Shown here: piece by piece, positions 3,636-64,000 of the stretch
How positions within the stretch are numbered: position 1 is the stretch's first letter
Layout of the letters: each line of letters opens with the position of its first letter
From: Candidatus Woesebacteria bacterium RBG_13_46_13
Lineage (GTDB): Bacteria; Patescibacteriota; Microgenomatia; UBA8517
NCBI GenBank assembly: GCA_001791995.1
Contig: MGFR01000002.1
Location: 36,457-100,456, forward strand
Length of the DNA: 64,000 nucleotides
Direction: 5' to 3'
Program-made: the position numbers and the translations under genes
Notes under the pieces: model-generated
Told to the model about the DNA's origin: nothing
Database searches by the model: none
What the model saw: the letters and a program-made list of their open reading frames with translations, nothing else

Positions 3636-4520
3636 ATGAAGAGAGCACTATTGGCGGTCGTTTTTGCGTTATTGCTTTATTTGGCTTTTGTTCGGCCGGC
3701 ATTGGCCGTGGTTGTTAGTCCCAAACCAACCGCAACGGTTGCTCCCACGGCAACTCCCACACCCATTCCGACTCCGGTGGCCGATTTAACCGAAAAAACC
3801 AAAGAAACCCTGGGTCCACTTGAGGCACTTCTGCAGGCTCAAAAACCCGGTCCGGTTTGGCCTTTTAACCCCATAAAGCATGCGATCAGAAACGCCGTAG
3901 CGGCAGGAGTTCCGGCAAATACCATAGTTTTGCTCCTTCTTTTGCCTGTGGTTGCCGCAATTATTGCGGCCTTCAGGCACCTGGTGGGACTAAGGGGGTT
4001 TGGAATTTTCCTCCCGGCTGCTTTGGCCGTAACCTTTGTGGCCACCGGTCCGGTTGTGGGGATAGGGCTCTTCTTAACGATTGTCAGCGTTTCGATTCTG
4101 GCCAGGACGCTACTGCGGAAAACCAAGACCAAGCTTCAGTATCTGCCGCGAATGGCCCTGATCCTCTGGTTTGTGGTTTTTGGTGTCTTGGGCATTTTAT
4201 TTGCAGCCCCCATCATCAGACAGCCGCAGCTGAGCAAGGTTTCCATCTTTCCCGTCCTTATCCTGGCTCTGTTGGCCGAGGACTTTACCCGGGTGCAGCT
4301 AGGCAAATCCGCCCAGACCGCGATTAATTTAACATCCGAAACATTGGTTTTGGCCCTGGTTTCGTATTTGTTCCTGACGCTTGAACCGGTAAGGCAATTT
4401 GCTCTTCTTAACCCTGAAATATTACTTATCGGCGTGGTTATCTTCGACGTTGTTTTGGGTAAGTATGTCGGGTTGAGGATTTTGGAGATTTGGCGCTTTA
4501 GGAAACTTATCAACAGCTAA
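3636..4520 (+). CDS. Multi-pass (7TM-like) membrane protein with a signal/anchor and a Pro/Thr/Ala-rich N-terminal segment
   Basis: 294 aa. MKRALLAVVFALLLYLAF anchor, PKPTATVAPTATPTPIPTPV linker, then about 6-7 hydrophobic helices. Its stop at 4518-4520 is directly followed by the ATG at 4522 of an ATP-grasp gene. The layout resembles 7TM proteins that partner alpha-L-glutamate-ligase-like enzymes. Confidence 0.55.
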   Translation: MKRALLAVVFALLLYLAFVRPALAVVVSPKPTATVAPTATPTPIPTPVADLTEKTKETLGPLEALLQAQKPGPVWPFNPIKHAIRNAVAAGVPANTIVLLLLLPVVAAIIAAFRHLVGLRGFGIFLPAALAVTFVATGPVVGIGLFLTIVSVSILARTLLRKTKTKLQYLPRMALILWFVVFGVLGILFAAPIIRQPQLSKVSIFPVLILALLAEDFTRVQLGKSAQTAINLTSETLVLALVSYLFLTLEPVRQFALLNPEILLIGVVIFDVVLGKYVGLRILEIWRFRKLINS

Positions 4521-4521
4521 A

Positions 4522-5808
4522 ATGAAACCCTCTTCGATTCTTGGACTTAATGCCCGTTCCCAGCTTTTTTCCTACCTCTATAATTCCCCCAAAGGAAAAA
4601 GCGTTGCCGATTCGAAACTGGCCACCCATAGGGTATTGGACAAAGTCCAAATCCCAAACCCGGAAATTTTCGCAAAGTTCAAAGAACCCAGAGACGTTGA
4701 AAAATTCAACTGGGAGAGCCTTCCGGATGCTTTCGCACTCAAGCCTTCCAAAGGTTTGGGAGGAGAAGGGATAATAGTTGTTAAAAAAAAGGCACAGGAC
4801 TTGAAAGGTTGGATAACTACCCAAAGACAAAGGGTTACAGTTGATGATTTAAAACTTCACACCTCCGATATTTTGGAGGGAGCCTACTCGATGGACAATG
4901 CACCCGATGTCGCTTTTGTCCAGGAGTATGTAGGCAGGCACAAGGCCTTTCGCAAGTATGCCTACCGGGGAACTCCTGATATTCGGGTCATTGTTTTTAA
5001 CAAAGTTCCGATTATGGCCATGCTTAGGCTTCCGACCAAAGAATCGGGGGGAAGAGCAAATCTGCATCAGGGAGCAATCGGGGTGGGGATTGATATCGCA
5101 ACAGGGATTACCACCAAAGCAATCTGGCACGGAGGGCTCATTAGATTCAAACCCGATACTGGGCGCAAACTTCACGGAATAAAAATTCCCCACTGGACCC
5201 AAGTACTCGAAACGGCAGCCAAGGCCCAGAGTGCTTCCGGTTTAGGCTATCTGGGGGTGGATATTGTCCTTCATCCGGAAAAAGGGCCGATGGTTTTGGA
5301 AATCAATGCCGAGCCGGGCTTAACCATCCAGCTTGCCAATATGGCAGGATTGAGAAAAAGGCTGGATAGGATAGAAGGGTTGGAGGTAAGGGATGCCGAA
5401 CACGGCGTAAAAATCGCCAAGGCGCTCTTTGCGGCCGATTTCGCGGACAGAGTCAAAGCGGAGGAGGGAATTATCACAATTCCGGTTATGGAGGAGATTA
5501 AAGTAAAGGATAAGCGTGGCAAGAAGATGGTTATTCCCGCCAAGATAGACACCGGCGCATTCAGAACCTCCATCGACAAAACTCTGGCCAAAGACCTCGG
5601 TCTTTTGCAGGAGGAGAGTATCCTTTGGGAAAGAAGATTCAGAAACGCGATCGGAAAAGAGGAAAGGCCAATTATTCCTTTTACCTTCTGGTTAAGGGGA
5701 AGAAGAATAAAAACCACCGCAGGGGTGGCGGACAGAAGTAGACTAAGACGACCCGTCATTGTAGGAAGACGAGACCTGACCGGTTTTTTGGTAAATCCCG
5801 AAAAATGA
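4522..5808 (+). CDS. Alpha-L-glutamate ligase-like ATP-grasp enzyme fused to a C-terminal retropepsin-like aspartic protease domain
   Basis: N-terminus ILGLNARSQLFSYLYNSPKGKSVADSKLATHRVLDKVQIP resembles the RimK-related alpha-L-glutamate-ligase-like family. The C-terminal part has PAKIDTGAFRTSID, a D-T/S-G-A aspartic protease signature, as in the putative ATP-dependent zinc protease / retropepsin-like domain usually found next to RimK. Confidence 0.7.
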   Translation: MKPSSILGLNARSQLFSYLYNSPKGKSVADSKLATHRVLDKVQIPNPEIFAKFKEPRDVEKFNWESLPDAFALKPSKGLGGEGIIVVKKKAQDLKGWITTQRQRVTVDDLKLHTSDILEGAYSMDNAPDVAFVQEYVGRHKAFRKYAYRGTPDIRVIVFNKVPIMAMLRLPTKESGGRANLHQGAIGVGIDIATGITTKAIWHGGLIRFKPDTGRKLHGIKIPHWTQVLETAAKAQSASGLGYLGVDIVLHPEKGPMVLEINAEPGLTIQLANMAGLRKRLDRIEGLEVRDAEHGVKIAKALFAADFADRVKAEEGIITIPVMEEIKVKDKRGKKMVIPAKIDTGAFRTSIDKTLAKDLGLLQEESILWERRFRNAIGKEERPIIPFTFWLRGRRIKTTAGVADRSRLRRPVIVGRRDLTGFLVNPEK

Positions 5809-6716
5809 AAAAAATATTAATCATCGCCGGGGGCGGAACAAAACACATGGAGCCTTTTAAGGTGGAGGGGGAGAAGCTGGGACTAAAGGTGGTCACCGCC
5901 AGCTTTTCGGATCTCTCATACACCACAGAAGGGGAGTTAAAATTATTTGTAAAGGGACTTCTGGTTGAATCTTTTGACGTAATCTATGTCAGACTCGTCG
6001 GAAAAAGATTTGAAGATGTCTCGCTTTTGGTCAATTATGTCAAGGAAAAAGGAATAAGAATTGTAGACAAAATATACGAAAAATCTCATATAATCCGCCT
6101 TCCTATTGCCAAGGCATTGGAGGTAAAACTTCTCTCCCAGGCAGGGGTTGTCCTCCCCAAGACTTTCTTCGCGAAACTCTCCGAAATTAAGCAAAAGGCT
6201 CCCGAACTGTACGGATCCCCCTTTGTTATCAAAGGAACTACCGGTAAACAGGGGCACGCGGTTTGGTCACCGAGAAATGCCGAAGAGCTGGAAAAACTTT
6301 ATCAGGAGCTTAAAGGTAAGGAGAAAGAAGGCAAAAGGTTTTTGGCACAGGAGTTTATCAAGGCCAGCCAAAGGATTAGGGTTTTTGTCGTCGGAGGAAA
6401 AGCAATTGCCGCCATAACCAGACCGACTCGCTGGAGGAGGCGTTTTATCGCCAAGGTGAATGGGGAATTTCCGGAGGGAAGACGTGAAGCTCTACTCCCG
6501 GTTCCCCAGGAGGATGCAGATTTGGCCGTAAGTGCGGCCAACGCTTTGGATGTCGATATTGCCGGGGTGGATGTTATTCACGAAGACTCAACCGGGAAAG
6601 CCTACGTTTTGGAGGTCAATAGCGCCCCCCGCTGGGAATCAATAACTAAAGACACCGGCGTTAACGTCGAAAGAGAGATACTGTTGTATCTTGATAGTAT
6701 AATGTCAGAGAAATGA
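5805..6716 (+). CDS. RimK-family ATP-grasp ligase (ribosomal protein S6 glutamate ligase-like)
   Basis: MKKILIIAGGG..., GSPFVIKGTTGKQGHAV, RVFVVGGKAIAAITRP, AGVDVIHEDSTGKAYVLEVNSAP are ATP-grasp RimK-like motifs. Start overlaps the upstream stop (ATGA at 5805-5808). Confidence 0.75.
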   Translation: MKKILIIAGGGTKHMEPFKVEGEKLGLKVVTASFSDLSYTTEGELKLFVKGLLVESFDVIYVRLVGKRFEDVSLLVNYVKEKGIRIVDKIYEKSHIIRLPIAKALEVKLLSQAGVVLPKTFFAKLSEIKQKAPELYGSPFVIKGTTGKQGHAVWSPRNAEELEKLYQELKGKEKEGKRFLAQEFIKASQRIRVFVVGGKAIAAITRPTRWRRRFIAKVNGEFPEGRREALLPVPQEDADLAVSAANALDVDIAGVDVIHEDSTGKAYVLEVNSAPRWESITKDTGVNVEREILLYLDSIMSEK

Positions 6717-7348
6717 CCGAACTAAAAGACTTAAAGGACGGGCCGTTTGAGGAAAGGGTTGCGGAAGTTGACCGCTGGGTTATTGCCTATGCTTCAGAAG
6801 GGGCGATCGGTTTAATTGACCGGGAGATTCTTAGGGGGGTACTTTCTGAAGTTGGTGCGAATTTTGAAAATTTGGACGAGGACGGTACAAAATCCCTTGC
6901 CCAATACTCCAACAAAGGGAAACATTTGGGAATGGAACAAGTTTGGGGTGAGCGTAGAGCCGAATTTAAAACCTGGACCGAGGCTTGGGTGGAAACTTAT
7001 GAAAGAAGAACAGGAAAAGAGCTTCCGAAAGTGGTTTTTACGGATGAGGAGACAGGCGAGAAAAGACCGTCGAAGACGGAAGGAATGAGGCAGTTATTGG
7101 GTGAGCTAACGGCATATGCATCCGGTTGTCTGAGCTTTCCCGAGTTGGCAAAGATACTGATTACTAGGCGTTATAATTTTGGCAAACCAAAGGATCAGCC
7201 GGCAGAGGAAGGCGGGAGAAGGAAAATTACGTTTTCCGGTCACAATATAAGCCAAGAAACGGGTAAAGAAAAACCTTTTGCTCCGGCTTCTTTTCCTCCG
7301 GAATTTCCCCTGGATGCTTGGGAAAAGATTAAAAGTTGGCGGAAATGA
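6713..7348 (+). CDS. Hypothetical protein (operon member)
   Basis: 211 aa, acidic and charged, no recognisable family. Start overlaps the RimK stop (ATGA) and its stop overlaps the next gene. Confidence 0.5.
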   Translation: MTELKDLKDGPFEERVAEVDRWVIAYASEGAIGLIDREILRGVLSEVGANFENLDEDGTKSLAQYSNKGKHLGMEQVWGERRAEFKTWTEAWVETYERRTGKELPKVVFTDEETGEKRPSKTEGMRQLLGELTAYASGCLSFPELAKILITRRYNFGKPKDQPAEEGGRRKITFSGHNISQETGKEKPFAPASFPPEFPLDAWEKIKSWRK

Positions 7349-7935
7349 CCCCCAGAGACAGCTATCTCAGGCGTTTTCGTAAATACGGAGTTGACCCCAG
7401 GACGCTTAAGTGGCAAAGCCAAAAAGCCGCCGAGCAAAGATATTTGGAGATAACCACCCTTACGGATTTTAACGGAAAGTCTGTCTTGGATGTCGGCTGC
7501 GGTTTCGGGGATCTGGTAGCCTTCATTAATTCCAAAACCGAAAACTTCTCCTATACGGGGATAGACTTGATTAACGAGTTTATTTTAGCTGCCAGAAAAA
7601 AATATCCTGGCTTTAGCTTTGTCATGGGGGACTATTTTTCAGACCCCCTTGAGGAAAAATTCGACATCGTTGTTGCCAATGGGTCTCTAAACTCAAATGT
7701 CCCCGACAATTACGCTTTTAGGAAAAAAGCCATCAAAACAATGTTCGATCACGCAAGGCAAGCGGTTATCTTTAATATGGCAGGAGGGTTTGCTCCCAAA
7801 GAGACGGCCCGGGGAAGTAACGTGTTCTTTGCGGACGCTTCCAAGATAGTCGGATTTTGCGAAAGTCTTACCTCCTCAGTCGTTTTGACAGACCACCCCG
7901 GCCGGCGGGAATTTACCGTAATTATGGCCCGTTAG
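7336..7935 (+). CDS. Class I SAM-dependent methyltransferase
   Basis: Motif I VLDVGCGFGDL and downstream DIVVANGSL are typical of Rossmann-fold MTases. Overlaps the upstream ORF by 13 nt. Confidence 0.65.
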   Translation: MAEMTPRDSYLRRFRKYGVDPRTLKWQSQKAAEQRYLEITTLTDFNGKSVLDVGCGFGDLVAFINSKTENFSYTGIDLINEFILAARKKYPGFSFVMGDYFSDPLEEKFDIVVANGSLNSNVPDNYAFRKKAIKTMFDHARQAVIFNMAGGFAPKETARGSNVFFADASKIVGFCESLTSSVVLTDHPGRREFTVIMAR

Positions 7936-8282: not shown

Positions 8283-8333
8283 GTGCGCGGGATTATCCCG
8301 AAAGAGATGATTCCGCGCACGAAGTTTTTATTT
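8283..8333. terminator. Stem-loop (GTGCGCGG...CCGCGCAC) followed by a T-rich tract; probable terminator between convergent genes
   Basis: 8 bp GC-rich inverted repeat at 8283-8290 / 8313-8320, followed by GAAGTTTTTATTT. Lies between the stop of the 7987-8268 gene and the stop of rplL. Confidence 0.4.
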
Positions 8334-8729
8334 CAACTCCACTTTTGCTCCGGCTGCTGTTAGCTTATCGCTTGCAGCTTTTGCATCTTCCGCTTTTGCG
8401 TCCTTTAAAACCTCAGCCGGAAGAGTTTCGGTCATACCTTTTGCATCCATCAGAGTCAGGTTTTGATTGATTTCCCTAAGTGCTTTGATAACACCTATTT
8501 TATTTGCTCCTGCGTCCGTCATTACAACAGATTGGGTAGCTGCAGCTGTTGCGGCACCCGCTTCTGCTGCGGCTGGAGCTGCTGCCGGGGCTGCTGCGGC
8601 AACCGGCATCGCCGAGACTCCGAGTTTCTCCTGAAGTGTACTTACCAATTCCGAAAGTTCGATAACCGTAAGTTTGCCTATCTCTTCTGTCAATTCATCG
8701 ACTTTTTTGGTTTTTTTCTCTTCTGCCAT
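8328..8729 (-). CDS. rplL: 50S ribosomal protein L7/L12
   Basis: MAEEKKTKKVDELTEEIGKLTVIELSELV...AAAAPAAAPAAAEAG...KVELK has the classic L7/L12 N-terminal dimerisation domain, Ala/Pro hinge and C-terminal domain. The track ORF extends to a GTG at 8738; the ATG at 8727-8729 is preferred because it avoids overlap with rplJ. Confidence 0.9.
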   Translation of the reverse strand: MAEEKKTKKVDELTEEIGKLTVIELSELVSTLQEKLGVSAMPVAAAAPAAAPAAAEAGAATAAATQSVVMTDAGANKIGVIKALREINQNLTLMDAKGMTETLPAEVLKDAKAEDAKAASDKLTAAGAKVELK

Positions 8730-8730
8730 G

Positions 8731-9249
8731 TTACTCACCGCCTTTCGATTTTAAGATATAAATAAGTTTTTGCATGTTTCCCTCAAGGGTTCCGACCAAT
8801 CCGTAAGAGGGGGAGAGAAGTACTCCCAAGACCTGTCCCAAAAGCACATCTCTGCTGGGAAGGGTGGATATTTTAAGCAGGCTTTCGCTGTCCTGGAAGG
8901 CACCGTCAATTACTCCGACCTTGAGCTTGGGAACCTCGTATTCCTTTGCAAAGGTTCCAAGTATCTGTACCGGAGCAATGGCATCATCTTCACCAACGAC
9001 CAAAGCCGTCTGGCCGGAAAGAATCTCATCCTGGAGAATTTCGGGACTGACCCTAGCGGCTTCCCCCGCGCGTTTTAACAAGGTGTTTTTAACAACCAGC
9101 ATCTTGGCACCCACCTCTTTGAGTCTTCTTTTTAATTCCTGCTGGCTTTTGACGGACAGACCCTGATAATTAATAAGCACCACGGATTTAGCCGTCTTTA
9201 GCTCCTGGGTCAGGTTTTCGACAAAGAATATTTTTTCTGCCTTTTTCAT
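8731..9249 (-). CDS. rplJ: 50S ribosomal protein L10
   Basis: MKKAEKIFFVENLTQELKTAKSVVLINYQGLSV...; canonical rplJ-rplL order. Confidence 0.9.
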   Translation of the reverse strand: MKKAEKIFFVENLTQELKTAKSVVLINYQGLSVKSQQELKRRLKEVGAKMLVVKNTLLKRAGEAARVSPEILQDEILSGQTALVVGEDDAIAPVQILGTFAKEYEVPKLKVGVIDGAFQDSESLLKISTLPSRDVLLGQVLGVLLSPSYGLVGTLEGNMQKLIYILKSKGGE

Positions 9250-9261
9250 TTTGTTTGCATT

Positions 9262-9283
9262 AAAAAAGCGCCTTCGAGGCGCC
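9262..9283 (-). terminator. Intrinsic terminator / attenuator hairpin about 13 nt upstream of the rplJ start
   Basis: On the minus strand: GGCGCC-TCGAA-GGCGC (5-6 bp GC stem, 5 nt loop), immediately followed by TTTTTT, then AATGCAAACAAA ATG (rplJ). Confidence 0.45.
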
Positions 9284-9369
9284 TATATACAAGATACTTA
9301 TATACGCTTTTGCCTCGGCACGAATTATGGTTCGACTTGGCGCACCACGTGCTGTCTTGGGACAGAGAT

Positions 9370-9397
9370 ATTATAAATTAAAGGGGATTATTGTCAA
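9370..9397 (-). promoter_or_regulatory. Near-consensus sigma70-type promoter (TTGACA-16 nt-TATAAT) upstream of the rplJ leader
   Basis: Minus strand: TTGACA (9392-9397), ATAATCCCCTTTAATT spacer, TATAAT (9370-9375). Confidence 0.35.
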
Positions 9398-10146
9398 CCG
9401 TTAGCTTTGCCTTCACCCCGCAGAATCCTTAAAAAGGGAATTCTGTCGTACCAGCGTCTTTTAATCTCCTGCCCTCGGCTAATGGATTGCTTGGCGGCAA
9501 CTTGTTCAAGGGCTGGTGCGGGGGTTGCTGGGGGCTGGGTTTTGGTCTCAACCACCTGCCCGATGCCTCTTTGGGCTACCTGTTCGCGGTAGTCGGGGGC
9601 CGGCCTAACCGGGCCTTGCCTAACGGCGGTTTCGACATATTTGGGGGCAAGTCTGGTTTGCTCTCTTTTTAACCAGGAAGGGGCTGTTGCGGGGGCCTCT
9701 GTCGAGGTGGCGGTTGTCGGAAAGGTTTCCGTTTGTGAAGGCGTCTCGGCAGGAGGGGTAACCGGAGCTGGCGTTCTCCTTACAAAGACAGAAGGCGCTT
9801 GGGCTTTGGCATCGATTTCTTTTTGAGTATCCATTATTGCATTAAATCTTCTAACCCCCTCGTCTCTTATTCCGCTTTTGGCCTTAACCGCTTCCGGGGT
9901 CGTTCCCTCCCAGTTGGCCATGCTTGCGGCTAGTCTGTTGCGATCGGTTAAGGGCTCGAGTTTGTTCTCGGCCGTTATGGTATCGGACCCTTTAGCTTCC
10001 TCTTCCTGTCCGCCGCTTTTGGTCTTAACTTTTCCCGGGGTCGTTCCCTCCCAGTTGGCCATGCTTGCGGCTAGTCTGTTGCGATCGGTTAAGGGCTCAC
10101 GTTGATCCTCGGCCATGAGTATTATTCTAACAGGGGCAAAAGGCAA
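9394..10146 (-). CDS. Hypothetical Pro/Thr/Ala-rich protein with an internal duplicated 21-residue motif, inserted between rplA and rplJ
   Basis: 250 aa ORF filling the whole rplA-rplJ gap. The motif EPLTDRNRLAASMANWEGTTP occurs twice and is encoded by two 64 bp identical DNA repeats. The start may be the internal Met (MAEDQREPL). Confidence 0.5.
   Translation of the reverse strand: MPFAPVRIILMAEDQREPLTDRNRLAASMANWEGTTPGKVKTKSGGQEEEAKGSDTITAENKLEPLTDRNRLAASMANWEGTTPEAVKAKSGIRDEGVRRFNAIMDTQKEIDAKAQAPSVFVRRTPAPVTPPAETPSQTETFPTTATSTEAPATAPSWLKREQTRLAPKYVETAVRQGPVRPAPDYREQVAQRGIGQVVETKTQPPATPAPALEQVAAKQSISRGQEIKRRWYDRIPFLRILRGEGKANG
9894..9957. repeat. 64 bp direct repeat, copy 1 (intragenic)
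   Basis: CCGGGGTCGTTCCCTCCCAGTTGGCCATGCTTGCGGCTAGTCTGTTGCGATCGGTTAAGGGCTC is identical to the copy at 10035-10098. Confidence 0.85.
10035..10098. repeat. 64 bp direct repeat, copy 2 (intragenic)
   Basis: Exact copy of 9894-9957, 141 bp away, in the same reading frame of the 9394-10146 ORF. Confidence 0.85.
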
Positions 10147-10160
10147 GATACAACTCGGGG

Positions 10161-10955
10161 TTAGATTTTAACCTTGACTGAAGGGCCCATACTGGCTTTG
10201 GTGTAGGCTTTAACTATCTGTTTGTCTTTACCGAGTGCAGTCAATACTGCCTCGGCATTTGCGATTAGTTCCTTGTCCGGTTGGCTGACCTTACCGAAGA
10301 CGGTATGGATTAAGGGTGCTTCTTTTTCGGTTTTAACTGTAATGGCGTTGGCGGAGAAGGCCTTGGCTTTTTTCGGATCGGAAATTAAAGTCCCGTTTTT
10401 GGGATTGGGCATGAGTCCTTTGGGACCCAAAATCCTGGCAAAAGGAACCAACTTCGGCATCATTTCGGCCGTTGCCAAGAGAATATCGAAATCAATCTTG
10501 CCTTCCTTGAGTTTGGCGACAGTTGCCTCGTCTGCGATTTCTATCTTCTTTTCCTTTCCGGCCGAGTGGGGGAATTTGACGTTGGCGCTCACCCCAACCT
10601 TTTTTAGAACCAGATGCAACTCGAGTGAGCCGTCAAACTTGGAATATGAAGTTTCTTTGGCCAAATTGATCGCTTCGGGGAGCGGATAAAGAGTTATGGG
10701 GTTTATCTTGGTTTTTGCCTCCTGATATTTTTTGCCCCTGACCTTGGGAGCATTGACTTTTTTTTCCTTAGCCCCCCCTTCGGTTCCTTCGGCAGTCGTG
10801 GTTTCCGTAGGTAATGGTTCGGCCTCAATGGTTTTAATTCTTTGTCCACCCTTTAGCCCCGCAATATGAATTTTCTCCGGTTTTGCCGACTGTTTTTTGT
10901 GCTCTTTCTTTTCTTCTACCCCTTCGCCGATGAATGCTGTTTTGGTTTTGCCCAT
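10161..10955 (-). CDS. rplA: 50S ribosomal protein L1 with a K/E-rich N-terminal extension of about 70 aa
   Basis: PITLYPLPEAINLAKETSYSKFDGSLELHLVL...GPKGLMPNPKNGT is conserved L1 core. Adjacent to rplK. Confidence 0.9.
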   Translation of the reverse strand: MGKTKTAFIGEGVEEKKEHKKQSAKPEKIHIAGLKGGQRIKTIEAEPLPTETTTAEGTEGGAKEKKVNAPKVRGKKYQEAKTKINPITLYPLPEAINLAKETSYSKFDGSLELHLVLKKVGVSANVKFPHSAGKEKKIEIADEATVAKLKEGKIDFDILLATAEMMPKLVPFARILGPKGLMPNPKNGTLISDPKKAKAFSANAITVKTEKEAPLIHTVFGKVSQPDKELIANAEAVLTALGKDKQIVKAYTKASMGPSVKVKI

Positions 10956-10956
10956 T

Positions 10957-11385
10957 TTATCCTTCTATTTTTATTCCCATGGAACGGGCTGTTCCGGCAA
11001 CGATTTTCTTGGCCGCCTCAACGTTGTCGGTATTCAAATCTTTCATTTTCTCCTGGGCGATTTTCCCCAGTTGGGCATCGGTTAAGGTTCCCGCGGTTTC
11101 TTTGGGGGTAACCCCCGAGCCTTTTTCGATTCCCAACTCTTTTTTAATCATGTCCGCAACCGGGGCCAGTTTGGTGATAAATTCGAAACTTCTGTCTTCA
11201 TAAATGGTAATTACCGCCGGGACAGTGTTGCCCTTCATGGCTGCGGTTGCCTCGTTATATTGTTTGACAAACTCCATGATGGCAACCCCGTGCTGTCCCA
11301 ATGCGGGCCCCAATGGGGGAGCGGGCGTAGCTTCCCCTGCGGGAAGGTTGACCTTGATTACGGTTTTAACTTTTTTGGCTGCCAT
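10957..11385 (-). CDS. rplK: 50S ribosomal protein L11
   Basis: [44 protein letters not shown]... has the canonical L11 N-terminus. Confidence 0.9.
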
Positions 11386-11480
11386 TTAAATAAAAAATTA
11401 TTACGGGAGTCGCGAAGCGATTTGAAGCTTTCGACACCCGTAGTGTCTCCCTCGAGGTCCGAGGTAAGTGATATTTTAGG

Positions 11481-12095
11481 CTAGACTTTGGCTATTTGCA
11501 AGAAGTCCAGCTCAACCGGGGTTTCCCGGCCGAAAATCGAAACCAATACTTTTACCTTGCCTTTTTCTTCGTCAATCTCGTGAATGGTTCCCAAGAAGTC
11601 CGCGAACGGTCCGTCGGTAATTTTGATAGCCTCACCCACGGAGAACTTGGTTTTAAATCTCGGGGCCGGGGCCGAGATGAACTTTTGAATATTGGTAACT
11701 TCTTCATCCGAAAGGGGAGTCGGGGCATTTCCCGCTCCAACGAATCCTGTTATTCCCGGAGTTGTTCTTACTGCCAGCCAGGTGGGGTCATCCAAAATCA
11801 TCTTGACCAAAAGGTATCCCGGGAATATTTTTTCCTTGACGGTGGCTTTTCTGCCGCCTCTGATCACAACCCTATCCTGGGTGGCAACCAAGAGTTCGAA
11901 GATTTTTCCCTGGAGACTCATCGTTTCGACTCTTTGTCTTAAGGTTTCCGAAACCCTGGCCTCATGCCCGGAGGCGGTGTGAACCACATACCATCTGGCT
12001 TTGGGGTCGGTTGTTTCGGAAATGACGATATGGCCGGGAATTTTTTTCTTCCCGGTTCCGCGCTCATCGACTGCAACAGGAGTGTCTTTATCCAT
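11481..12095 (-). CDS. nusG: Transcription termination/antitermination factor NusG
   Basis: WYVVHTASGHEARVSETLRQR... is the NGN domain. The C-terminal KOW (GEAIKITDGPFADFLGTIHEIDEEKGKVKVLVSIFGRETPVELDFLQI) and the position between secE and rplK also fit. Confidence 0.9.
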   Translation of the reverse strand: MDKDTPVAVDERGTGKKKIPGHIVISETTDPKARWYVVHTASGHEARVSETLRQRVETMSLQGKIFELLVATQDRVVIRGGRKATVKEKIFPGYLLVKMILDDPTWLAVRTTPGITGFVGAGNAPTPLSDEEVTNIQKFISAPAPRFKTKFSVGEAIKITDGPFADFLGTIHEIDEEKGKVKVLVSIFGRETPVELDFLQIAKV

Positions 12096-19424: not shown

Positions 19425-20321
19425 TTATCTTCGGGAACGAACAAGAAACGCAATTGATGCCAGCAAGAGTATTCCTGCTGATGCAATTATTGCGGCGGAC
19501 TTAAAAGGTGAGCTTGGGGTTGGGGGAGTTATTGTGACTTCGCGGGTTATCTTTTCAGAGACGGTTGGCGTCGGGGAGGAGGTTATAACTGGCTTTTGTG
19601 TCGGAGTGGGTGAGTTTACGGCAAGAGCGGCTTTTGCCGATAATTCATTAGAGATCGGTCCAAGGGTGCACCCGTTTCCCGGAATCACTATAAAATAGTA
19701 AATTACACCGGTACCAAGACTTCCTACCGTATACGAGGTGGTGTTTGCTCCTCCAACGTTGGGGTTGCCAAAAATATAAGTTCCCTTTTTCGTTCCGTAA
19801 TAAACGGTATAAAAAGTTACAGGGTCGGTTGCCTTCGTCCAGGTGAGTTTGATCTGGGAATTAGATATCGGAGTTGCCGAGACAAGTTTAGGAGGGCCAC
19901 CCGGGGCGGCGTCGGTGCAGGTGGTGGAATAAAAAGTCACGTGTCCGATTCCCGGGAGGGCAACGTTCTGGGTTTTATCGACGATATCGAGCGAATCGAC
20001 TCCTTCCTTGGTCGATTTGATGTAAAAAACTGCCTTACCCGAGCTATCGAGCTTGTTTGATTCAGGAGCGACTATAGCCGAGGGATCATCTGTCACCACA
20101 ACGCTTACTTCCTCTCCTGCCAGGGGAGTGCCGTAGGCATCCTTCACAGTAACGGTTAATACCGCCTCGGTTTTCCCATCGGCCGGTACTCTATCGGAGC
20201 CGGACATCGTAGCTACGATACTGGAACTATGAAAATCAGGAGAATTGTAAGCTGCCGTCCATTTGGAAAAAGCAAAAAAGAAAGCAAGAAAAAGAAAGGC
20301 TATTAATAATATTTTTCTCAT
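19425..20321 (-). CDS. Secreted/cell-surface protein with Ig-like/FN3-like beta domains and C-terminal TM anchor
   Basis: N-terminal signal (MRKILLIAFLFLAFFFAFS). Beta-rich repeats (TVTVKDAYGTPLAGEEVSVVVTD; KLTWTKATDPVTFYTVYYG is FN3-like). C-terminal SAAIIASAGILLLASIAFLVRSRR anchor. Confidence 0.5.
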   Translation of the reverse strand: MRKILLIAFLFLAFFFAFSKWTAAYNSPDFHSSSIVATMSGSDRVPADGKTEAVLTVTVKDAYGTPLAGEEVSVVVTDDPSAIVAPESNKLDSSGKAVFYIKSTKEGVDSLDIVDKTQNVALPGIGHVTFYSTTCTDAAPGGPPKLVSATPISNSQIKLTWTKATDPVTFYTVYYGTKKGTYIFGNPNVGGANTTSYTVGSLGTGVIYYFIVIPGNGCTLGPISNELSAKAALAVNSPTPTQKPVITSSPTPTVSEKITREVTITPPTPSSPFKSAAIIASAGILLLASIAFLVRSRR

Positions 20322-62272: not shown

Positions 62273-62770
62273 ATGAGCCCTGAGGCCAAAACCGTTACGG
62301 AAAGCTATTTAGAAGGAGTAAAGTATCTGCCAGAGTGGAGAAAGGTTTTTTCGGCGGAGTTTTCAAGAATAATTTCCCAGACCGACATCAAATACGAAAA
62401 AGGAACCTATGATGGCCTGCAACAGCTGGGATTAAAAGTAGAGCTGGACGGGGTATCCCGCCAGTTGATGCGGATTCTTCCTGCCACTGCGGATTTCCCC
62501 CAACTGGTTTTTAGGTTGTATGAAGGACGCATCAAGCTCTTGTCGGGAAATAAAAACCGGGAATGGCGTGATTGGGTCAAGGGCCTGTGGATAGATTTGG
62601 CGGAGGGAATGGTAGGCATGAGCCTGGGGGATATTGCGGGGAAAGAGGAAAGCGTAAAATTCTTCGGGTTAAGACGAAGGTTCGACGCCCAAACGACTGA
62701 TGAAATGCATATCAATCTCTTTCCGCAAAAGACGATCGTTTTGGATGCTCCGCTTTCTTTTAAGAGGTAA
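62273..62770 (+). CDS. Hypothetical protein
   Basis: 165 aa ORF. Confidence 0.4.
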   Translation: MSPEAKTVTESYLEGVKYLPEWRKVFSAEFSRIISQTDIKYEKGTYDGLQQLGLKVELDGVSRQLMRILPATADFPQLVFRLYEGRIKLLSGNKNREWRDWVKGLWIDLAEGMVGMSLGDIAGKEESVKFFGLRRRFDAQTTDEMHINLFPQKTIVLDAPLSFKR

Positions 62771-63458
62771 GGCTACGGGTCAGCTCGGTGACTTTATCCA
62801 AATGTCCTTCGAGTATGGCCTCCAAATTTCCCCAGGATTTTCCGATTCTGTGGTCGGTGACGCGGTTTTGGGGGAAATTGTAAGTTCTGATTTTCTCGGC
62901 ACGCATGCCCCGGCCGATGACGCTTCTGTAGCCGGCAATGGTGAGCATCTTTTCCTCTTCGGCTTTTTCCCAGAGTTTGGCCCGGAGTAAATCCATGGCA
63001 ATTTTGCGGTTTTGTTCCTGGAAACGCTCACGCTGGGCGGAAACCACAATTCCGGTCGGTTTATGGATCAGCCTCACCGCGGTTGAGACCTTCTGAACAT
63101 TCTGGCCTCCCTGGGAAGAGGAATGGAAAAACTGCATTTCGAGATCCACGGGATTTATCCTGACTTCGGATTCGGGAATCTCGGGTAGAATTGCCACGGT
63201 CGCCGTTGAGGTATGAATTCTGCCGTGTCTTTCGGTCGTGGGAATTCTTTGCACCCTGTGTACTCCCGACTCGTTTTTGAGGATATCAAAAGCTCCCGGC
63301 CCAACAATCTTCACCACAGCTTCATCAACAGGAAAGACCTTCCAGCCGAGCTTGGTTGCATAGCGGATATACATCCGAAGCAAGTCTCCCGACCAAATTT
63401 TGGCTTCGTCTCCTCCGGTTGCACCACGGACTTCAAGGTAAAGAGTTTGATTCTCCAT
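62760..63458 (-). CDS. prfA: Peptide chain release factor, RF1-type (PxT motif), lacking N-terminal domain 1
   Basis: MENQTLYLEVRGATGGDEAKIWSGDLLRMYIRYA is the start of RF domain 2. RVQRIPTTERHGRIHTSTATVAILPE carries the PxT tripeptide. SSQGGQNVQKVSTAVRLIHKPTGI carries GGQ. Only 232 aa, against about 360 for canonical RF1. Confidence 0.75.
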   Translation of the reverse strand: MENQTLYLEVRGATGGDEAKIWSGDLLRMYIRYATKLGWKVFPVDEAVVKIVGPGAFDILKNESGVHRVQRIPTTERHGRIHTSTATVAILPEIPESEVRINPVDLEMQFFHSSSQGGQNVQKVSTAVRLIHKPTGIVVSAQRERFQEQNRKIAMDLLRAKLWEKAEEEKMLTIAGYRSVIGRGMRAEKIRTYNFPQNRVTDHRIGKSWGNLEAILEGHLDKVTELTRSLTS

Positions 63459-63464
63459 AGGGAG

Positions 63465-63785
63465 CTATTTAGACTGGCGAAGTGCGGCCAGCGTATCCGG
63501 CCTGTCCATTTCTTCCTGAATTTTCTTGAGCCTTTTGATACGCCTTTTTTCGGTTTTGGAGACAACCTTGGTCACGGCCCCCGCCTGCCTGGTCTTGAAA
63601 GCCTCGACCCTGCCTGCCGTGTCCAGGTATTTCATCTGGCCGGTATAGAAAGGATGACAATTGGAGCAAACATCCACTTTTATCTCGGGCACGCTGGCCC
63701 CGACCGTGAATGTATTACCGCAGGCACAGGTGACCTTTGCCTCCGGATACCATTTGGGATGGATTTGCGCTTGCATAGTCGTCAA
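63465..63785 (-). CDS. rpmE: 50S ribosomal protein L31 with a C-terminal extension of about 35 aa
   Basis: MQAQIHPKWYPEAKVTCACGNTFTVGASVPEIKVDVCSNCHPFYTGQMKYLDTAGRVEAF is the canonical L31 with its Zn-ribbon, followed by KTRQAGAVTKVVSKTEKRRIKRLKKIQEEMDRPDTLAALRQSK. Confidence 0.8.
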   Translation of the reverse strand: MTTMQAQIHPKWYPEAKVTCACGNTFTVGASVPEIKVDVCSNCHPFYTGQMKYLDTAGRVEAFKTRQAGAVTKVVSKTEKRRIKRLKKIQEEMDRPDTLAALRQSK

Positions 63786-64000
63786 TTATAGCTTCTTTTT
63801 TTGACTTCGGCAACGCCGACGCCGACGGCCACGATTGCTGCCCCGATCAGAAAGACCGGGGTGACCTTTTCGCCCAGCCAGATAACGGCCAGGGGAGCGG
63901 CAAAAAGAGGGTAGAGATAGGCAAAAAGCGAAGCTTCGGAAATCTCGATTGTTTTTTGGGCCATATTCCAAAGCGAATAAGCCAGGGTGCCGGAAATGAT
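63782..64000 (-). CDS. EamA/DMT-family transporter, partial (N-terminus beyond window end)
   Basis: The C-terminal helix-rich segment ...ASLFAYLYPLFAAPLAVIWLGEKVTPVFLIGAAIVAVGVGV... is typical of the EamA C-terminal half. The ORF is open to the window edge. Confidence 0.45.
   Translation of the reverse strand: MISGTLAYSLWNMAQKTIEISEASLFAYLYPLFAAPLAVIWLGEKVTPVFLIGAAIVAVGVGVAEVKKRSYN

Follow-up and report, generated by a model that had tools for sequence, protein, structure and literature searches.

A Predicted Release Factor 1 without Domain 1 in Woesebacteria and Related Microgenomates

Results

The DNA analyzed here is a 64,000-nucleotide (nt) stretch of Candidatus Woesebacteria bacterium RBG_13_46_13 (GenBank assembly GCA_001791995.1, contig MGFR01000002.1, positions 36,457–100,456), which is hereafter referred to as the window. 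Its minus strand carries a prfA-type gene (62760–63458) directly behind rpmE, the gene for ribosomal protein L31. The prfA-type gene encodes a version of peptide chain release factor 1 (RF1) that has 232 amino acids (aa) and comprises domains 2, 3, and 4. Judging from its sequence and from the analogy with engineered RF1, this protein is very probably the working RF1 of the organism, and the loss of domain 1 would be an evolved feature spread throughout the lineage, namely in Woesebacteria and several other Microgenomates lineages.

Domain Composition of the 232-Residue Protein

Pfam detected the RF-1 domain in this protein with E = 3e-34 and the PCRF domain with E = 8e-32, the latter over profile positions 99–194 of 194 only. 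Among the NCBIfam prfA models, NF001859 was matched at positions 103–336 of 347 (E = 5e-89; 298.8 bits against an equivalog cutoff of 400) and TIGR00019 at positions 111–344 of 361 (295.7 bits against an equivalog cutoff of 423). The other family models gave 192 bits for prfB, 60 bits for prfH (cutoff 167), and 45 bits for ArfB (cutoff 100). The best matches among PDB sequences were residues 89–317 of T. maritima RF1 and residues 109–342 of E. coli RF1, with E = 7e-67. An AlphaFold model constructed with 35 homologues exhibited a mean pLDDT (predicted local distance difference test) of 84, and gave TM (template modeling) scores of 0.74–0.77 to ribosome-bound RF1 over the whole query.

The elements by which RF1 reads stop codons were all present: HRVQRIPTTERHGRIHTST contains the PxT tripeptide, the upstream Gln, and the Ile-His-Thr after the loop, and the GGxE helix tip occurs as GGDEA. 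The decoding segment reads HRVQRIP-T-TERHGRIHTST. The codons of its "anticodon" tripeptide P73-T74-T75, lying within HRVQRIPxTE..GRIHTST, occupy positions 63234–63242 of the minus strand, and those of the catalytic G117-G118-Q119, which was located from the sequence and the alignments, occupy 63102–63110 of the same strand. Missing are the approximately 100–110 N-terminal residues of domain 1, since the alignment starts near position 103 of the prfA model, as well as a hairpin of approximately 10 residues in domain 2, as seen in the PDB and homologue alignments. The protein hence has the domain homology, decoding elements, and GGQ motif of RF1, and lacks domain 1 and a score above the equivalog cutoff, the shortfall being consistent with the cost of the missing domain. 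Its sequence identifies it as a predicted RF1 made of domains 2–4 without domain 1. The Pfam, NCBIfam, and PDB alignments bear out the preliminary description, made from the sequence alone, which had reported an RF1-type PTT, a GGQ, and the loss of domain 1.

A tblastn search with the RF1 sequence detected no second release factor homologue in the window and 10 kb beyond it. The absence of a separate full-length prfA or prfB, a point raised in the preliminary description, holds for these approximately 74 kb, which are the part of the genome covered. A split-off domain 1 encoded as a separate gene was also considered and rejected, as tblastn with eleven domain-1 sequences found no isolated domain-1-like sequence in the same approximately 74 kb (window and 10 kb beyond, locus L001).

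Distribution of the Short Form

Release factor homologues were taken as the best 120 clusters from a collection of 5.8 billion proteins, and the loci of relatives were obtained from a species-representative genome collection and from metagenomes. All of these 120 best clusters were 228–253 aa long at 74–85% identity; they came from NCBI, JGI, ENA, and Logan assemblies, and several were named Woesebacteria or Microgenomates. At 74–95% identity, the short RF1 was found in Woesebacteria and Microgenomates from well over 100 independent assemblies, one of which carried a 95%-identical copy within the same order of genes. One protein of the window was identical to a protein in GCA_001792165.1, and the closest named relatives were Woesebacteria. 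An alignment of 35 sequences contained 53 invariant columns, which include the decoding loop, the GGQ, and the domain-4 segment RTYNF..R..DHR. Such conservation indicates that the short RF1 is a lineage trait rather than a pseudogene, as far as can be predicted from sequence, and it agrees with the suggestion made earlier that the organism uses a minimal RF1.

The relatives fell into three states of domain 1. It was absent from approximately 30 loci, including Woesebacteria, Gottesmanbacteria, a Roizmanbacteria-type clade, and the outliers L106 and L110. Half of it was kept at 17 loci, whose labels include Levyibacteriota, Daviesbacteria, and others; here the N-terminal piece has 56–81 residues and can be aligned to the final helical hairpin of the domain (...DP...LA..E...L..). 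A full domain 1 was present at four loci resembling the candidate phyla radiation (CPR), namely L020, L022, L098, and L101. The decoding and catalytic motifs were identical in the three groups except for the free middle residue of PxT, which varies in RF1 generally. No full-length RF1 labeled Woesebacteria was among the loci returned by the two contig scans. In a neighbor-joining tree of domains 2–4, constructed without support values, the domain-1-less forms were placed in at least 3–4 groups among the half-domain forms, which suggests that domain 1 was probably lost more than once. The loss looks stepwise, from full to half to none, because relatives retain half of the domain.

The domain-2 hairpin (consensus S..LGGFKE, RF1 residues ~40–50, window 63050–63458) is deleted in most Microgenomates RF1s irrespective of the state of domain 1, and L019, L021, L098, L099, L101, and L105 have instead an insertion of 10–20 residues a few residues past the hairpin site. 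This deletion was examined as a correlate of the domain-1 loss and rejected, as the hairpin is deleted in the full-length L098 and L101 and retained in the domain-1-less L106 and L110. At another locus (L089:9881–10000, on the metagenome contig Ga0209541_10000094), rpmE and the short prfA are 117 nt apart, and this spacer holds a remnant translating to NSDIAILEFRPGPGGEEA, which is a duplicated 5′ fragment of the release factor gene itself.

The rpmE–prfA Junction and Expression Signals

The gene rpmE (63465–63776, minus strand), identified with Pfam and NCBIfam, encodes a zinc-type L31 of 103 aa, beginning with ATG at 63774–63776 and ending with TAG at 63465–63467. A 6-nt spacer, CTCCCT (63459–63464), separates this stop from the ATG of prfA at 63456–63458, and prfA ends with TAA at 62760–62762. 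Both open reading frames (ORFs) share one reading frame on the minus strand. The arrangement given previously, in which the TAG of rpmE is followed after two codons by an in-frame ATG of a 232-aa release factor, is therefore confirmed by the coordinates. The release factor ORF can start no earlier than ATG 63458, because the two codons before it, CTC and CCT, cannot serve as starts and are themselves preceded by the in-frame TAG. For rpmE, TTG at 63785 is in frame and an unlikely alternative start; ATG is favored because most of the 120 closest L31 homologues listed are 103 aa long. Adjacent genes fall in the same frame in one case out of three by chance, and the frame shared by L31 and RF1 is best read from the sequences as a coincidence of tight gene packing that has no function. 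The adjacency of rpmE and prfA is common to ordinary bacteria possessing full-length RF1, and tight coupling of the two genes is common in the present group. At two half-domain relatives (L009:9809–9814 and L091:2119–2124), the stop of rpmE is immediately followed, in frame, by the start of prfA (TAGATG).

A consensus scan detected neither a promoter-like nor a Shine-Dalgarno-like motif before prfA. The same kind of scan located a promoter-like TTGCCG-17-TATAAT on the minus strand (63785–63813) that ends 8 nt 5′ of the rpmE ATG and is likely the start of a short-leader rpmE–prfA transcript. Within the window, only 13 of 47 ORFs starting with ATG possess a Shine-Dalgarno-like motif, and many genes have TATAAT 7–12 nt before ATG (e.g., 3636, 6713, 12321, 19425–20321, 38698, 52261, 54023, and 63776). 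These sequences suggest that leaderless or very short-leader mRNAs may be widespread in the window.

Convergent with prfA is a plus-strand ORF of 165 aa (62273–62770) without a family match, which overlaps the 3′ end of prfA by 11 nt. It is kept at the same place in L166 and absent in L162, where the gene for a trypsin-like protease comes directly next. The window was also matched to contig DATEXV010000004.1 of GCA_035256625.1, a metagenome-assembled genome of Patescibacteria. In the NCBI gene list of that assembly, rpmE is not called between an EamA-family gene and the release factor gene (L001:9678–10000, corresponding to window 63459–63785). The exact 103-aa L31 sequence was absent from the protein collection, with a best match of 94%, and L31 appears to be unannotated in that assembly.

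The C-Terminal Extension of L31

The Pfam Ribosomal_L31 match (E = 4e-26) ends near residue 63 of 103, and the NCBIfam scores were 89.9 against a cutoff of 70 and 82.9 against a cutoff of 38 (TIGR00105/NF000612). With its cysteines present as C-A-C and C-S-N-C, the protein belongs to the zinc-binding type A. A Lys/Arg-rich extension of approximately 37 aa (63468–63578, minus strand; ...KTEKRRIKRLKKIQEEMDRPDTLAALRQSK) follows the part covered by the L31 family models. The extension of about 35 aa noticed in the preliminary description is thus real, the tail measuring approximately 35–40 aa from the end of the Pfam match. The 120 closest L31 homologues listed were 72–94% identical across all 103 aa, the tail being highly conserved. 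A motif RP(D/K)(T/S)L..(L/M)(R/L) was located at the L31 end in nearly all Microgenomates-type loci, accompanied by a half or full domain 1 of RF1 and also occurring with a reversed gene order; the domain-1-less L106 and L110 have short L31 tails. Because the extension is present whatever the RF1 form or gene order, it is an independent and older feature of the lineage and not a linker. An origin as a remnant of domain 1 was considered as well and rejected, as the extension is also found at loci where half or all of domain 1 is retained. Many length changes of ribosomal proteins have been described in CPR bacteria (PMC9297842, a paper on the CPR ribosome that mentions neither release factors nor, in its main text, L31), and the extension is probably one of these.

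Stop Codon Usage and Neighboring Genes

The genetic code is standard. Among 71 long ORFs of the window, 31 end with TAA, 22 with TGA, and 18 with TAG, and tRNA-Trp has the anticodon CCA. TAG thus serves as a normal stop, as had been stated earlier. With all three stops in use, the organism requires RF1 to read TAG and must also possess an RF2 to read TGA; no RF2 gene was found near prfA in 160 related loci.

The nusG-rplK-rplA-rplJ-rplL cluster (8328–12095, minus strand) is interrupted by an ORF of 250 aa (9394–10146) without a Pfam or NCBIfam match, which sits between rplA and the L10 leader RNA RF00557 (9253–9379). L1 (10161–10955, 264 aa) was matched by L1 models in its C-terminal half only and below the cutoff, and this oddity fits the odd uL1 reported for Microgenomates. 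The only small methyltransferase gene of the window (7336–7935) was considered as PrmC and rejected, scoring 22 bits against a cutoff of 199. On the plus strand, 3636–6716 encodes a 7TM_transglut membrane protein and two ATP-grasp proteins (ATPgrasp_ST, and a RimK-like protein with a Zn_protease-like tail), with a small methyltransferase adjoining. This cluster looks like a peptide- or sugar-modification module unrelated to RF1.

Discussion

In model bacteria, domain 1 is located at the L11/L7–L12 stalk and mediates RF3-dependent recycling. According to PMC1586002, which cites Mora et al. 2003 and Vestergaard et al. 2005, domain 1 is dispensable for codon specificity and in vitro release and is required for engaging RF3, and a truncated RF1 of E. 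coli remains functional in vivo. We infer by analogy with this engineered E. coli RF1 that the short protein would be active without domain 1. The intact module of domains 2 and 4, with its PxT loop, conserved Gln, and Ile-His-Thr, would read UAA and UAG, the intact GGQ domain 3 would release the peptide, and RF1 would depart from the ribosome without RF3. Because prfA lacks a promoter-like or Shine-Dalgarno-like signal of its own, we propose that its translation probably depends on ribosomes that have terminated at the end of rpmE and re-initiate after a further 6 nt.

Several points weigh against the idea that the short protein is the working RF1 and arose by loss of domain 1 throughout the lineage. 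The search for release factors covered approximately 74 kb of a genome of approximately 1 Mb, which leaves room for a second, full-length prfA elsewhere, and the tree that points to repeated loss has no support values. The stalk proteins encoded in the window look canonical: this holds for L11, which has both of its domains and scores above the equivalog cutoff, as well as for L10 and L7/L12, and no matching change was seen at the stalk docking site in these proteins. Many bacteria, Bacillus among them, have no RF3 (PMC1780047), and Bacillus nevertheless keeps domain 1, as does the Bacillaceae locus L043, where it is full. The loss of RF3 alone thus does not explain the truncation, because RF3-less bacteria retain the domain.

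One may ask whether the short ORF merely reflects gene decay or faulty assembly, with the real RF1 encoded at full length elsewhere. The prfA score below the equivalog cutoff (299 against 400 bits), the vague NCBI name "peptide chain release factor-like protein", and the portion of the genome searched all fit such an explanation. We nevertheless regard it as very unlikely, because the length, the start, and the functional residues are conserved in at least 120 clusters from many independent assemblies. The structure model is moreover confident and complete, the missing domain of approximately 100 residues explains the score shortfall, and the loci returned by the contig scans yielded no Woesebacteria-labeled RF1 of full length. 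It would be similarly hard to view the protein as a specialized paralogue, that is, a rescue factor resembling PrfH or ArfB rather than a general termination factor. PrfH likewise lacks domain 1 (PMC1586002, PMC6514570), and the prfH and ArfB models did match weakly; however, the 299 bits obtained for prfA far exceed the values for these two models, both of which remained under their cutoffs. The RF1 decoding residues are all canonical, the gene occupies the ancestral rpmE–prfA position, and no RtcB gene was among the neighbors, which together render a rescue function highly improbable.

The preliminary description had also proposed, as an alternative, that low-level read-through of the rpmE TAG yields an L31–RF1 fusion. 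In such a product the L31 extension would be the linker, and the fusion would tether RF1 to the ribosome or provide a substitute for its N-terminal part. The in-frame ORFs with only TAG-CTC-CCT between them speak for this in the present genome and in its nearest relative, L166 (93% nucleotide identity), whose TAG-CTCCCT-ATG junction is identical. TAG is the leakiest stop codon of bacteria, which counts in the same direction. The frames and spacing, however, vary among relatives, a finding that the preliminary description itself had named as contrary to its proposal. Among more distant relatives that lack domain 1 and have rpmE upstream (18 loci), spacer length varies between 3 and 117 nt, and the three frames are distributed 6/5/7, as expected by chance; some of these spacers hold further in-frame stops, and the rpmE stops are mostly TAA. 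Closer to the present genome, L167 and L168 have TAA-CTCACT-ATG with the same 6-nt spacing, the junction of L163 reads TAA-ATT-ATG, and at L162 the spacer measures 34 nt and the frame differs. In one clade rpmE lies downstream of prfA, and yet the L31 extension and the short RF1 are both kept. No L31–RF fusion was present among the 120 RF and 120 L31 homologue clusters listed. L31 is positioned at the central protuberance and the 30S head, distant from the A site, which also argues against a fusion. The proposal is not supported by these observations, and we consider such a product extremely unlikely. A different role for the same codon would be that the RF1-specific UAG of rpmE senses RF1, such that the termination rate sets re-initiation (or read-through) into prfA. 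A TAG stop of rpmE was found at 15 of 40 CPR-like loci with prfA directly after it, compared with 21% of background ORFs (binomial p = 0.01), and at 1 of 14 loci with rpmE elsewhere; the corresponding values for other bacteria were 6 of 13 and 4 of 15. After close relatives were collapsed, however, the TAG fraction was 30–34% (Fisher p ~ 0.05), so that the excess is marginal and unproven. TAG and TAA interchange within the species-level clade of the present organism, most domain-1-less relatives have TAA, and it is not evident which way such feedback would act. A sensing device of this kind hence appears improbable. The same must be said of the broadest scenario, in which Microgenomates, both this organism and many relatives, may run UAA/UAG termination without stalk contact or RF3 and may in addition set prfA through an rpmE feedback loop closed by UAG via translational coupling; we regard this combination as a doubtful speculation. 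RF3-free recycling and translational coupling are, like the activity itself, what we infer for the reading preferred here, namely a working RF1 that has lost domain 1.

A large natural lineage in which the predicted housekeeping RF1 retains only half of domain 1, or none of it, offers an evolutionary experiment on the role of this domain outside RF3 recycling, and its short RF1s are ready-made proteins for the study of binding, proofreading, and dissociation without stalk contact. Translation factors would thereby join the list of pared-down translation components in CPR bacteria. That these proteins score below the curated prfA cutoffs also has a practical consequence, as surveys of genome completeness and metabolism may mistakenly record RF1 as missing. 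Natural RF1s without domain 1 are already in public databases, under vague names such as "release factor-like" and "hypothetical". To our knowledge, almost all bacteria, mycoplasmas included, have kept domain 1 in their class-I release factors. We found no description in the literature of a housekeeping RF1 without domain 1 in CPR/Patescibacteria, and PrfH is the sole case of N-terminal domain loss mentioned in a review of release factor evolution (PMC6514570).

Comparison with Known Systems

The short protein shares domains 2–4, the PxT loop with the decoding residues on either side, the GGQ, and the C-terminal domain-4 segment with the canonical RF1 of E. coli, T. thermophilus, and T. maritima, at approximately 45–50% identity across the region in common, and differs from it by lacking domain 1 (~100–110 aa) and the ~10-residue hairpin of domain 2 and by scoring below the equivalog cutoffs. 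PrfH, the partner of RtcB2, is also a class-I release factor homologue without domain 1 that has a recognition-like domain and a GGQ. Its recognition region has diverged, however, and it rescues damaged ribosomes and has rtcB adjoining, whereas here the recognition residues are canonical and no rtcB is found among the neighbors. ArfB, ICT1, and C12orf65 are reduced members of the superfamily that possess the GGQ and a basic C-terminal tail without a codon-recognition domain; the short RF1, by its sequence, is predicted to differ from them in keeping the full domain for stop-codon recognition. Its GGQNV(N/Q)K resembles the ICT1-type context. The autoregulatory UGA frameshift site of prfB is, like the TAG of rpmE, a factor-specific stop near the coding region of the factor concerned, although no frameshift signal exists here and the conservation of TAG is weak. 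A further stop of this kind is the UAG that ends hemA upstream of prfA in enterobacteria. The same architecture as that of the short RF1 is found in the E. coli RF1 and RF2 engineered to lack domain 1, which keep stop recognition and release and do not engage RF3 (PMC1586002). These engineered truncations carry a growth cost, whereas the natural form has been fixed in a large lineage together with half-domain intermediates.

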